A program made the position numbers and the translations under genes. A DNA stretch of 64,000 nucleotides, from assembly GCF_001677475.2 (NCBI RefSeq), contig NZ_CP015229.1. One strand, written 5' to 3'. This DNA is from Escherichia coli (GTDB lineage: Bacteria > Pseudomonadota > Gammaproteobacteria > Enterobacterales > Enterobacteriaceae). Below the pieces are notes generated by a model. The model searched no databases, was not told the origin of the DNA, and saw only the letters and a list, made by a program, of their open reading frames with translations. The first letter of the stretch is position 1. Every line of letters starts with the position of its first letter. This document shows positions 14,346 through 35,796 of the stretch, one piece after another.

Positions 14346-14421
14346 TCCTCTGTAGTTCAGTCGGTAGAACGGCGGACTGTTAATCCGTATGTCACTGGTT
14401 CGAGTCCAGTCAGAGGAGCCA
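14346..14421 (+). tRNA. asnT: tRNA-Asn (GUU)
   Basis: TCCTCTGTAGTTCAGTCGGTAGAACGGCGGACTGTTAATCCGTATGTCACTGGTTCGAGTCCAGTCAGAGGAGCCA; canonical E. coli tRNA-Asn with encoded CCA; preceded by the GC-rich discriminator taatatgcgccccgttcac. Confidence 0.95.
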
Positions 14422-14509
14422 AATTCTAAAAATTCGCTTTTTTAGCGCAATGTCACTGACCTTAGTTGAACATTGTTTTTTAACGGATAGCGGTTTTTTA
14501 ACATCTTAA

Positions 14510-14543
14510 GCGCCCTCGACCTTTATGGTTGAGGGCGTTTTGC
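14510..14543 (+). terminator. Intrinsic terminator downstream of asnT
   Basis: Hairpin gccctcgacc/ggttgagggc followed by TTTTG. Confidence 0.6.
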
Positions 14544-14734
14544 TATGAACGCCATCACCATTTTCCCCTCGATTATAAAACTTGAGTTATTCAGTAGTCT
14601 CCCCTCTTGCAACTCACACCCAAAACTGCCTAACGAAAAGTTATTAATTTTCAATCATATTGCTATCAGGATTTACATTTTTTCGCTGTGCTAGAAAGGG
14701 CGCATTTATGTTAGCTCGTTCAGGGAAGGTCAGC

Positions 14735-17700
14735 ATGGCTACGAAGAAGAGAAGTGGAGAAGAAATAAATGACCGACAAATATTATGCGGGATGGGAATT
14801 AAACTACGCCGCTTAACTGCGGGTATCTGCCTGATAACTCAACTTGCGTTCCCTATGGCTGCGGCAGCACAAGGTGTGGTAAACGCCGCAACCCAACAAC
14901 CAGTTCCTGCACAAATTGCCATTGCAAATGCCAATACGGTGCCCTACACCCTTGGAGCGCTGGAATCGGCCCAAAGCGTTGCCGAACGTTTCGGTATTTC
15001 GGTGGCTGAGTTACGCAAACTCAACCAGTTTCGTACGTTTGCTCGAGGTTTTGATAATGTCCGCCAGGGTGATGAACTGGATGTCCCGGCACAAGTTAGT
15101 GAAAATAATTTAACCCCGCCACCGGGTAATAGCAGTGGCAACCTTGAGCAACAGATAGCCAGTACTTCACAGCAAATCGGGTCTCTGCTCGCCGAAGATA
15201 TGAACAGCGAGCAAGCAGCAAATATGGCGCGTGGATGGGCCTCTTCTCAGGCTTCAGGCGCAATGACAGACTGGTTAAGCCGCTTCGGTACCGCAAGAAT
15301 CACGCTGGGCGTGGATGAAGATTTTAGCCTGAAGAACTCCCAGTTCGATTTTCTCCATCCGTGGTATGAAACGCCTGATAATCTCTTTTTCAGTCAGCAT
15401 ACTCTCCATCGTACTGACGAGCGTACGCAGATTAACAACGGCTTGGGTTGGCGTCATTTCACTCCCACATGGATGTCGGGCATCAACTTCTTTTTCGACC
15501 ACGATCTTAGCCGTTACCACTCCCGCGCCGGCATTGGCGCGGAGTACTGGCGCGACTATCTAAAATTAAGCAGTAACGGCTATTTGCGACTGACCAGCTG
15601 GCGCAGCGCACCTGAACTGGACAACGATTATGAAGCCCGCCCGGCCAATGGCTGGGATGTACGCGCAGAAGGCTGGTTACCCGCCTGGCCGCACCTTGGC
15701 GGTAAACTGGTCTATGAACAGTATTATGGCGATGAAGTGGCCCTGTTCGATAAAGACGATCGGCAAAGTAATCCTCATGCCATAACCGCTGGACTTAACT
15801 ATACCCCCTTCCCGCTGATGACCTTCAGCGCGGAGCAACGCCAGGGTAAACAGGGCGAAAATGACACCCGTTTTGCCGTCGATTTTACCTGGCAACCTGG
15901 CAGCGCAATGCAGAAACAGCTTGACCCGAATGAAATCGCTGCACGGCGTAGCCTTGCAGGCAGCCGTTATGATCTGGTGGATCGCAACAACAACATCGTT
16001 CTGGAATATCGCAAAAAAGAACTGGTTCGCCTGAACCTGACAGACCCCGTGACAGGGAAGTCAGGAGAAGTGAAATCACTGGTTTCGTCGCTACAAACCA
16101 AATATGCCCTGAAAGGCTATAACGTCAAAGCCACCGCTCTGGAAGCTGCCGGTGGTAAAGTGGTCACAACGGGTAAAGATATTCTGGTTACCCTGCCGCC
16201 GTACCGGTTCACCAGTACGCCAGAAACCGATAACACCTGGCCGATTGAAGTCACCGCTGAAGATGTCAAAGGCAATTTTTCGAATCGTGAACAAAGCATG
16301 GTGGTCGTTCAGGCACCTGCGCTAAGCCAGAAAGATTCCTCGGTATCGTTAAGTACCCAAACATTGAGTGCGGATTCCCATTCAACCGCCACACTGACTT
16401 TTATTGCTCATGATGCAGCTGGTAATCCTGTTATCGGGCTGGTGCTCTCGACGCGTCACGAAGGTGTTCAGGACATCACCCTTTCTGACTGGAAAGATAA
16501 TGGTGACGGAAGCTATACCCAAGTCCTGACCACAGGAGCGATGTCTGGCACGCTAACGCTGATGCCACAGCTGAACGGTGTGGATGCGGCTAAAGCCCCC
16601 GCCGTGGTGAATATCATTTCTGTTTCGTCATCCCGAACTCACTCGTCAATTAAAATTGATAAGGACCGTTATCTCTCCGGGAATCCTATCGAGGTGACGG
16701 TAGAACTGAGAGATGAAAATGACAAACCTGTTAAGGAACAAAAACAGCAAATTAATACCGCATTCAGCATCGACAACGTGAAACCTGGTGTCACTACAGA
16801 CTGGAAAGAAACCGCAGATGGTGTCTATAAGGCAACCTATACCGCCTATACCAAAGGCAGTGGGCTTACTGCGAAGCTGTTAATGCAAAACTGGAATGAA
16901 GATTTGCATACCGCTGGATTTATCATCGACGCCAACCCGCAGTCAGCGAAAATTGCGACATTATCTGCCAGCAATAATGGTGTGCTCGCCAATGAGAATG
17001 CAGCAAACACCGTCTCGGTCAATGTCGCTGATGAAGGAAGCAACCCAATCAATGATCATACCGTCACGTTTGCGGTATTAAGCGGGTCGGCAACTTCCTT
17101 TAACAATCAAAACACCGCAAAAACGGATGTTAATGGTCTGGCGACTTTTGATCTGAAAAGTAGTAAGCAGGAAGACAACACGGTTGAAGTCACCCTTGAA
17201 AATGGCGTGAAACAAACGTTAATCGTCAGTTTTGTCGGCGACTCGAGTACCGCGCAGGTTGATCTGCAGAAGTCGAAAAATGAAGTGGTTGCTGACGGCA
17301 ATGACAGCGCCACAATGACCGCGACCGTCCGGGATGCAAAAGGCAACCTGCTCAATGACGTCATGGTCACTTTCAATGTTAATTCAGCAGAGGCGAAACT
17401 GAGCCAAACCGAAGTGAATAGCCACGACGGGATCGCCACAGCTACGCTGACCAGTTTGAAAAATGGTGATTATAGGGTTACGGCCTCTGTGAGCTCTGGT
17501 TCCCAGGCTAATCAACAGGTGAATTTTATCGGTGATCAAAGTACTGCTGCCCTAACCCTCAGTGTGCCTTCAGGTGATATCACCGTCACCAACACAGCTC
17601 CGCAACATATGACTGCAACCTTGCAGGATAAAAATGGCAACCCACTAAAAGATAAAGAAATCACCTTCTCTGTACCAAACGACGTCGCAAGTCGGTTCTC

Positions 17701-34476: not shown

Positions 34477-35394
34477 TTAGCTCACCAATTGCCACTGCCT
34501 TTTTTCCATCACTGGAGAACTAATCACTGACATTAACAACTCTTTCACTGCTTGCGCCTGTGGTGATAAGTTCGCTCTGGCGGGTAAATTTAATGACAAA
34601 GAGAGACTCATGGAAGGTGTGGTAATGCGTGACATCCACCCGTTTACTGCGCCACATAACGAACGCGCGGCCGATTCGGGTAATACTGCAACGCCCATGC
34701 CGCTGGCAATCGCTGCGGTAAGCGTGGCAATAGACTCAATTTCACCAATGACTTTTGCCGTGAGCCGCCGTAGGGAAAAAGCCTCATCAACACGAAGTCT
34801 AATAGCACTGTAATCACTGGGGAGAAAGAGGTTCATTTGCGCAATAGCATTAACATCAACGCTTTGCCCCGGGCAATCTTGAGTTCCTACCAGGAAAAGA
34901 TCTTCTTTCAGCAAAGCCTGACTGGATACACCAGCCACAGGGGAATGCTCATAAATCACCGCCATATCGAGTTGATGATTTATCAGTTTTTCGTTAAGTA
35001 CTGCACCGCTATTTTCATGAAGATAGATAACGATCTCCGGGAATTCAGCGCGAACCGCCTGTAATAAGGGCATGGTGATGGATGACGCTGCGGTTCCTGG
35101 CGCAAAGCCAATCGAGACTTGCCCCGATAATGCCTGACCAACGTTATGCACCGCCAGTTGGGCCTGCTCACACTGACGTAAAATGGCCCGCGCATGGGTA
35201 TAGAGAATTTTTCCGGCGTCTGTTGGCGTAACGCCCCGTTTTGTGCGAATCAAAAGTTGTTGATTTAACTCACCTTCCAGTGTGGCAACCTGCTGACTGA
35301 GCGCTGGTTGTGCGATATGCAATACTTCAGCAGCCTGGGTCAGGCTACCAATATCTACAATTTTTACGAAGTATTTCAGGCGTCTGAAGTTCAT
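34477..35394 (-). CDS. nac: Nitrogen assimilation control protein Nac (LysR family)
   Basis: 305 aa from MNFRRLKYFVKIVDIGSLTQAAEVLHIAQPALSQQV...; position between cbl and asnV as in E. coli. Confidence 0.85.
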   Translation of the reverse strand: MNFRRLKYFVKIVDIGSLTQAAEVLHIAQPALSQQVATLEGELNQQLLIRTKRGVTPTDAGKILYTHARAILRQCEQAQLAVHNVGQALSGQVSIGFAPGTAASSITMPLLQAVRAEFPEIVIYLHENSGAVLNEKLINHQLDMAVIYEHSPVAGVSSQALLKEDLFLVGTQDCPGQSVDVNAIAQMNLFLPSDYSAIRLRVDEAFSLRRLTAKVIGEIESIATLTAAIASGMGVAVLPESAARSLCGAVNGWMSRITTPSMSLSLSLNLPARANLSPQAQAVKELLMSVISSPVMEKRQWQLVS

Positions 35395-35448
35395 GTTGCC
35401 TCCGGTGTTTAAGAATCGGCACAAGTGCCGCCATTACTTACAACCAGA

Positions 35449-35465
35449 GTGCAAGATGCTTGCCA
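35449..35465 (-). promoter_or_regulatory. Sigma-54 (-24/-12) promoter element for nac
   Basis: Minus-strand sequence CTGGCAAGCATCTTGCA fits TGGCAC-N5-TTGCA and lies about 55 to 70 bp upstream of the nac ATG; nac is known to be NtrC/sigma-54 dependent. Confidence 0.55.
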
Positions 35466-35720
35466 GTTTTATTTTGGCGTTGATGTACAAGCTAACCAGC
35501 TGTCAAATAAGAGATTATGATAGATTCGTCATTGGCTCCTTTAATCAGCTGTCGCGTTCCCCTGCCCTATAAAAGGAGGGTATGCACCACGATGGTTCAT
35601 TACCCAATAAGATTGAAAGCTCACCACTTTGTTGAAATTGACAGCAAACAAACAAAAAAATGCATTTCACCCTTTGACATCACCATGCACTGCCATTAAT
35701 ATGCGCCCCGTTCACACGAT

Positions 35721-35796
35721 TCCTCTGTAGTTCAGTCGGTAGAACGGCGGACTGTTAATCCGTATGTCACTGGTTCGAGTCCAGTCAGAGGAGCCA
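35721..35796 (+). tRNA. asnV: tRNA-Asn (GUU)
   Basis: Identical 76-nt tRNA-Asn sequence; same upstream discriminator as asnT. Confidence 0.95.

Follow-up and report, generated by a model that had tools for sequence, protein, structure and literature searches.

DNA lying between identical dispersed repeats of a chromosome can be inverted or excised, and the question addressed here is whether this has happened at four identical tRNA-Asn genes of Escherichia coli, asnT, asnW, asnU and asnV. The genes were studied in a 64,000-nt stretch of contig NZ_CP015229.1 (the window, meaning the whole stretch at its full length), where asnW lies inverted relative to the other three. An earlier note on this DNA had proposed that the direct pairs could lead to deletions and that asnW, paired with any other copy, could lead to inversions. 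We consider it very likely that the four known asn genes act as portable homology for inversions, that no island sits at any asn copy of the window, and that homologous recombination is the likeliest source of the island-free flips.

ARAGORN reported five tRNA genes in the window, one tRNA-Ser and four tRNA-Asn(GTT), and each of the Asn genes scored 72.6 bits against the Rfam tRNA model RF00005, compared with a gathering score of 29. The four genes are located as follows:

14346-14421, plus strand: asnT, tRNA-Asn(GTT), 76 nt (ARAGORN, Rfam), with mtfA and yeeJ on either side, the position it has in annotated E. coli records
29072-29147, minus strand: asnW, tRNA-Asn(GTT), 76 nt (ARAGORN, Rfam), the sole minus-strand copy of the four
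30896-30971, plus strand: asnU, tRNA-Asn(GTT), 76 nt (ARAGORN, Rfam)
35721-35796, plus strand: asnV, tRNA-Asn(GTT), 76 nt (ARAGORN, Rfam)

String comparison showed that the four genes are one string over all 76 nt; the coordinates, strands and identity given in the earlier note are correct. Four identical 76-mers cannot occur by chance, so the copies form a multicopy gene family, and they are the ordinary, known asnT, asnW, asnU and asnV of E. coli, each a monocistronic tRNA-Asn(GUU) gene. When the flanks are included, exact identity covers 84-86 bp in most pairs and 105 bp for asnT and asnV, which share the -10 hexamer and 24 nt upstream of the gene. Farther out, the flanks are unrelated in the alignment, except for the promoter hexamers and parts of the terminators. 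The sameness of the copies would be kept by selection on the tRNA, with gene conversion probably helping. The repeats delimit three blocks, to which no strand is assigned:

14422-29071: block A, with yeeJ, a glycosyltransferase family 9 gene, shiA, amn and yeeN, bounded by the 3' ends of the inverted pair asnT and asnW
29148-30895: block B, with yeeO and the asnW and asnU promoters, between the inverted pair asnW and asnU
30972-35720: block C, with an interrupted cbl and nac, between the direct pair asnU and asnV

Gene names in the window were taken from homologous annotated E. coli records, and the list of open reading frames (ORFs) was used for coordinates. The order is serU(-), mtfA, asnT, yeeJ, glycosyltransferase family 9 gene, shiA, amn, yeeN, asnW(-), yeeO(-), asnU, cbl(-), nac(-), asnV, ldtA(-), cobT, cobS, cobU, which, judged by these names, is the standard K-12-like order. 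No integrase ORF adjoins any asn copy in the ORF list of the window, and the tRNA 3' end (17-25 nt) was found only inside the four asn genes, with no leftover attachment (att) repeats elsewhere in the window. Because both an adjoining integrase and extra copies of the tRNA 3' end are absent, each of the four asn genes, a potential attachment site for islands, is unoccupied in the window.

Gene order was then compared across 5,426 complete E. coli genomes by searching for junctions. Recombination between two asn genes always joins the promoter-side flank of one copy to the 3'-side flank of another, and each query was a predicted recombinant junction, a 1-kb synthetic sequence of 500 nt, the asn gene and 500 nt. 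A genome was counted if one place covered at least 80% of the query, of which a standard genome reaches only ~55%. The junctions and the genomes containing them were:

yeeN-asn-yeeO 3' end, standard asnW junction: 4,974 genomes
yeeO 5' end-asn-cbl, standard asnU junction: 5,177 genomes
nac-asn-ldtA, standard asnV junction: 4,664 genomes
yeeN-asn-nac, asnW×asnV inversion (yeeO-asnU-cbl-nac flipped): 265 genomes, ~5%
yeeN-asn-yeeO 5' end, asnW×asnU inversion (yeeO alone flipped): 34 genomes, ~0.6%
mtfA-asn-yeeN, asnT×asnW inversion (yeeJ…yeeN flipped): 1 genome
mtfA-asn-cbl, asnT×asnU deletion: 0 genomes
mtfA-asn-ldtA, asnT×asnV deletion: 0 genomes
yeeO 5' end-asn-ldtA, asnU×asnV-type exchange: 35 genomes
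yeeO 3' end-asn-ldtA, right side of the asnW×asnV flip without an island: 1 genome (SE15)

The standard junctions are present in 86-95% of the 5,426 genomes. All three possible inversions were found (265, 34 and 1 genomes), as had been predicted for asnW against the other copies. The earlier note had named a comparison of gene order across E. coli genomes as the check, with an invariant order as the outcome that would speak against rearrangement; the order varies. However, its prediction of deletions between direct pairs was not borne out, since the simple asnT×asnU and asnT×asnV deletions, searched as synthetic junctions, each occur in 0 of the 5,426 genomes, and the asnU×asnV-type junction goes with relocation of cbl-nac in both genomes inspected. 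Across the asn region, identity to the window does not exceed ~99% for any complete genome of the collection. A megablast of the whole 24.5-kb region was discarded as a way of reading gene order because the yeeJ alleles are too divergent and identical asn pieces of different copies were merged. The matches also included a few small plasmid records (13 places; e.g. NZ_CP196293.1, 5,969 bp) with a tRNA-Asn-like sequence ~97% identical to the chromosomal gene.

The flip of yeeO alone was followed in strain PSJ-36, in which the order is yeeN-asn(-)-yeeO(+)-asn(+)-cbl-nac-asn-ldtA. The background of this strain is K-12-like: against K-12 J53, the segment from asnW to asnU (1,748 bp) is the exact reverse complement, with two single-nucleotide polymorphisms in each of the 3-kb flanks. 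None of the four asn sites of PSJ-36 is occupied by an island, and no integrase was found from hiuH to cobU. The reciprocal junction, yeeO 3' end-asn-cbl, was found in the same strains as yeeN-asn-yeeO 5' end. The breakpoints lie inside the identical repeats and the products are reciprocal, and this type of flip occurs in a locus without an island or integrase (PSJ-36 being the single genome checked in full). The 34 yeeO-flipped genomes come from humans, pigs, chickens, a duck and frogs, and belong to at least four haplotype classes; their identities to the PSJ-36 region group at 100-99.8%, 99.0%, 98.7%, 98.0-97.9% and 97.6%. Genomes in the standard orientation, K-12 J53 included, are 99.9% identical to the PSJ-36 flanks. 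Judged by these classes, the yeeO flip appears to be recurrent, with several independent flips needed whichever state is ancestral.

The most frequent inversion, asnW×asnV, has been published. Auvray 2021 (PMC8209727) and Wami 2021 (PMC8461471) described an asnW-asnU-asnV (yeeO-tRNA(Asn)-cbl-gltC) inversion in pks-positive phylogroup B2 E. coli, labelled configuration 1A or class Ic. The repeats and the block involved are those of the inversion proposed in the earlier note, and the window differs from this configuration in having the non-inverted order and no pks island. The flip of yeeO alone, that between asnT and asnW and the move of cbl-nac are in neither paper. EcN and SFAD3 have the arrangement yeeN-asn(-)-nac-cbl-asn(-)-yeeO-asn(+)-integrase-clbS…, and in the three asnW×asnV-inverted genomes that were inspected, a P4-type integrase and the pks island lie beside the right-hand asn copy. 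From the layout of EcN and SFAD3, "pks at asnW" and the UTI89-type "pks at asnV" denote one chromosomal position, with a neighbouring block of 4.3 kb flipped. In SE15, the nac-cbl-asn-yeeO block is flipped and the right-hand site is empty. This arrangement was rejected as a simple product of recombination between asn genes, since (in 3124-8576 of its locus L009) an extra 1-kb 3' yeeO fragment follows asnW, 166 nt of unmatched sequence occupy the place expected for asn, and the asnV-promoter end has no tRNA gene.

The remaining rearrangements were found in genomes with islands. The order in ET5 is mtfA-asn-yeeN'…yeeJ'-att remnant-island'-int'-asn(-)-nac-cbl-asn(-)-yeeO-asn(+)-int-island, from which it follows that ET5 carries the asnT×asnW flip (yeeJ…yeeN plus an island integrated at asnT) together with the asnW×asnV flip. 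The junction yeeO 5' end-asn-ldtA was considered as an asnU×asnV deletion and rejected, because all 25 records listed of the 35 have four asn places, and in two inspected genomes cbl-nac lies beside an island encoding a type VI secretion system (T6SS); this inspection covers the 25 listed genomes, and the other 10 could hold a simple deletion. The order in MRY15-117 is T6SS island-cbl-nac-asn(+)-int-island-yeeJ…yeeN-island-int'-asn(-)-yeeO-asn(+)-ldtA, while in 2016C-3878 the T6SS island follows mtfA-asnT-int and the yeeJ…yeeN block is absent. Judged by these orders, cbl-nac was moved beside asnT, not lost, in MRY15-117 and 2016C-3878, which are both of the genomes inspected among the 35. The shortest route to this relocation would be an asnU-asnV exchange that excises a circle, followed by its reinsertion at asnT, and four inversions would also give the order of MRY15-117. 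A route by three inversions was rejected because it predicts an inverted yeeJ…yeeN block, which in MRY15-117 is in the standard orientation. No att remnant (16 nt of the tRNA 3' end) was found beside the relocated cbl.

Genomes with a single asn copy were also considered as products of recombination between asn genes and were rejected. In WS4202 (O157:H7), which has one tRNA-Asn gene, yeeJ is truncated by IS1203, and the remainder of the cluster, three asn copies included, has been lost. FHI_NMBU_03 has asnT-int followed by the high-pathogenicity island (HPI) and no other asn copy. As complete genomes with a single tRNA-Asn gene exist, one copy is enough for viability.

We propose that a reciprocal crossover between the inverted asnW and any other copy would flip the intervening DNA. 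Each pair of asn genes shares 84-105 bp of exact identity, which is sufficient for RecA-dependent exchange, whose length requirement is quoted as ~23-27 bp for the RecBC pathway or 44-90 bp for the RecF pathway (PMC12074656). Block ends at the asn 5' ends would each bring a promoter, the recombinant tRNA genes would keep a promoter and the full coding sequence, and the yeeO segment would also carry its own upstream region. Since every promoter-side end carries a promoter and the recombinant tRNA genes are complete, the flips are expected to be nearly neutral, to be tolerated and to persist as polymorphisms. We infer that general homologous recombination is the likeliest source of the island-free flips. 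Between direct copies, exchange seems to be rarer or selected against, as a simple deletion would cost the cell tRNA copies as well as shiA, amn, yeeN, yeeO or cbl-nac; the sole trace of such an exchange is the lineage in which cbl-nac moved from the asnU-asnV interval to beside asnT.

A rather unlikely alternative is that the rearrangements are made by the P4-type tyrosine integrases of the asn-targeting islands (HPI, pks, T6SS and islands resembling integrative and conjugative elements), acting site-specifically at the tRNA 3' ends, which are their attachment sites. Integrases of the lambda/P4 type recombine attP with attB or attL with attR, and are not known to recombine two bare attB sites, which weighs against this explanation. 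The yeeO flip is also difficult to reconcile with it, as PSJ-36 has four empty asn sites and no integrase from hiuH to cobU, and the flip arose on several haplotypes. The asnW×asnV flip supports it: the right-hand asn copy of EcN and SFAD3 is followed by the integrase and clbS, and 0 of the 265 inverted genomes has an island-free right-hand junction, which occurs only in SE15, outside the 265. Auvray et al. suggested that pks insertion and the inversion went together, and noted that more than one asn gene is open to islands of this kind (PMC8209727). The link with pks is, however, equally explained by one ancestral event and clonal inheritance in B2 lineages, so that the lack of an island-free right-hand junction in the 265 genomes fits either one clonal event or a role of the integrase. 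In ET5, which carries two of the flips, an integrase adjoins each of two asn copies, and the att remnant marks the island that flipped with yeeJ…yeeN; in MRY15-117, the moved unit, asn-int-T6SS island-cbl-nac-asn, resembles a composite island that was cut out between two asn copies and inserted anew at asnT. P4-type integrases may have produced the asnW×asnV flip and the relocation of cbl-nac, or may have raised their likelihood. For homologous recombination between asn genes, the absence of an island-free right-hand junction from the 265 genomes is an unfavourable point, as is the presence of several asn-associated integrases in ET5 and the cbl-nac-relocated lineage. Three further points limit that explanation: junctions between identical repeats cannot reveal RecA dependence or tell RecA-type recombination from an island integrase, the neutrality of the flips is read from the layout, and the tally of independent yeeO flips is based on haplotype identity classes, not on a phylogeny.

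Assembly errors, by which segments between inverted repeats would be misoriented in some deposited genomes, were considered only because inverted repeats can confuse assemblers, and no support for them was found here. The repeats, at 84-105 bp, fit within a single read of any current platform, each reciprocal junction was found, and the variants recur in many genomes of unrelated sources (34 yeeO flips in several haplotype classes); moreover, the asnW-asnV inversion was reported in two independent papers (PMC8209727, PMC8461471). We regard this explanation as extremely improbable. It is just as hard to credit that the yeeO segment flanked by asnW and asnU works as a programmed invertible switch giving phase variation of yeeO or tRNA-Asn expression. 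The recurrent, exact and reciprocal flip of a segment with three promoter regions would suit such a switch, but no recombinase gene lies in or beside the segment in the window, where the only ORFs at this place are yeeN, yeeO and cbl, or in PSJ-36. The segment is also functionally symmetric, with a tRNA promoter at each end and the upstream region of yeeO, so a flip leaves both tRNA genes and yeeO with promoters, and a flipped state in 0.6% of genomes is unlike a rapidly switching locus. A stronger view of the asn cluster, as an actively and reversibly shuffling region in which the yeeO module flips back and forth at a measurable rate in clonal populations and selection acts on a consequence of the asnW×asnV flip, seems quite improbable to us, although Auvray et al. 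speculated that the flip locks the pks island by changing the asn copy and promoter beside its integrase (PMC8209727). Its counterpart is that the flips are neutral debris of rare recombination.

The following promoter-like sites and downstream hairpins were found at the asn genes:

14299-14327, plus strand: asnT promoter-like site, TTGACA-17-TAATAT (consensus scan, 10/12 matches)
29166-29194, minus strand: asnW promoter-like site, TTGACA-17-TAATAT (consensus scan)
30852-30879, plus strand: asnU promoter-like site, TTGACA-16-TAAGAT (consensus scan)
35674-35702, plus strand: asnV promoter-like site, TTGACA-17-TAATAT (consensus scan)
14447-14481, plus strand: possible terminator 3' of asnT, a hairpin then U6 (RNA fold; without a terminator-scan call)
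29035-29064, minus strand: strong hairpin without a U-tract, 7 nt 3' of asnW (fold -14.7 kcal/mol, z = -5.3; without a terminator-scan call)
30978-31008, plus strand: asnU intrinsic terminator with A-tract, G+C stem and U-tract (fold -20.0 kcal/mol, z = -5.65)
35803-35830, plus strand: asnV intrinsic terminator (terminator scan, 12-bp stem then T-run; fold -18.7 kcal/mol, z = -4.8)

The promoter-like sites, with 10/12 matches, end 18-19 nt before the mature 5' end at all four copies, and a G+C-rich stretch separates the -10 hexamer from the mature 5' end in each. A promoter architecture shared by the copies had been claimed before and is confirmed, consisting of TTGACA, a spacer of 16-17 nt and TAATAT (TAAGAT at asnU). 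The accompanying claim of a shared terminator architecture holds in part: asnU and asnV have near-identical canonical terminators, whereas the hairpins of asnW and asnT are atypical, that of asnW lacking a U-tail and asnT having a weak, A/U-only stem immediately 3' of the gene and then the U6 hairpin (fold of 14422-14481, -11.4 kcal/mol, z = -2.2). Each asn copy is predicted to be a separate transcription unit with its own strong sigma-70 promoter. In the alignment, three copies have a motif, (C/G)AGCAAAC or GGCAAAC, and after it an A/T-rich stretch, upstream of the -35 hexamer, and asnT lacks it; a Fis-type or other upstream activating site is a possible role for it:

~29200-29225, minus strand: upstream motif of asnW (alignment)
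~30815-30840, plus strand: upstream motif of asnU (alignment)
~35640-35665, plus strand: upstream motif of asnV (alignment)

Other features within and around the blocks are listed below:

13265-13354, minus strand: serU, tRNA-Ser (ARAGORN)
14660-22738: yeeJ, ORF of 2,692 aa (ORF list)
23320-24372, minus strand: glycosyltransferase family 9 gene (ORF list)
29248-30888, minus strand: yeeO (ORF list)
31430-33839, plus strand: insertion sequence (IS) of the IS21 family in cbl, 2,410 bp, matching records annotated ISEc10, with a 6-bp target duplication GTCAAG
31523-33022, plus strand: istA, 499 aa, in the IS21-family element
33019-33774, plus strand: istB, 251 aa, in the IS21-family element
34477-35424, minus strand: nac (ORF list)
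39359-40189 and 40278-41336: cobalamin-riboswitch/CbiG-fragment region

The IS21-family insertion cuts cbl at about codon 177 of 316, and the strain is probably without Cbl function, as judged from this interruption. The element is outside the repeat system and stretches the asnU-asnV interval to 4.8 kb; apart from it, block C is 97.8-98.2% identical to the asnU-asnV interval of K-12 J53. The yeeJ of the window is a long, intact allele; intact, too, is the adjacent glycosyltransferase family 9 gene, which K-12-like records have as a pseudogene.

Outside the asn region, a tyrosine recombinase ORF (12187-13212) lies directly beside serU, with sok (1299-1473) and DicF (8748-8799) upstream, all within 1-13250 of the window. 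Based on this integrase-like ORF, DicF and the hok/sok-type RNAs, 1-13250 appears to be a lambdoid-type prophage at the 3' end of tRNA-Ser serU; K-12-like strains have yodB at this position. Beyond the blocks, a cobalamin riboswitch (40015-40189, minus strand) precedes an ORF of 168 aa that covers only the N-terminal third of cobalt-precorrin-5A hydrolase (CbiG). The truncated ORF is followed by cobU, cobS and cobT, beyond which lie pocR and the small RNA STnc230. The CbiG fragment appears to be what is left of a cbi operon, and the pocR/pdu genes are present, as they are in 2016C-3878 and MRY15-117.

In summary, the phenomenon is already known, and the yeeO-only flip, the asnT×asnW flip and the cbl-nac relocation are extra detail, not a new kind of system. 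These three, the recurrence of the yeeO flip and the lack of simple asnT deletions were not found in the literature retrieved. The numbers added here (asnW×asnV in ~5%, yeeO alone in ~0.6%, asnT×asnW in one genome and cbl-nac moved in one lineage) are useful for interpreting synteny, naming asn copies and describing island insertion sites, such as pks at asnW versus asnV.

Compared with the asnT/asnW/asnU/asnV region of E. coli K-12 (~44 min), the window has the same four genes in the same order and on the same strands, with the same neighbours mtfA, yeeJ…yeeN, yeeO, cbl-nac and ldtA, and its inter-asn sequence is ~98% identical to that of K-12 J53. It differs in the IS21-family insertion in cbl, the long intact yeeJ allele, the intact glycosyltransferase family 9 gene and the prophage at serU. 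The tRNA-Asn genes are known insertion sites for the HPI and pks islands (PMC8209727; PMC8461471), and islands with P4-type integrases (HPI at asnT; pks at asnW, asnU or asnV; ICEEc1/ICEKp1) target these same genes. The sites are occupied in other strains by HPI at asnT and by pks, T6SS, rearrangement hotspot (RHS), restriction-modification and mobilisation islands; unlike these island-bearing strains, the window has all four asn sites empty. Inversions and excisions occur between other chromosomal repeats, such as rrn operons and IS copies. In Salmonella Typhimurium, 113-bp direct repeats flank wzy (PMC12074656). As in these repeat systems, the perfect asn repeats of ~100 bp serve as crossover sites, and the rearrangements are exact, reciprocal and potentially reversible. 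In contrast to them, the asn repeats are functional tRNA genes, and their products are mostly inversions of 1.7-14.7 kb, not excisions.

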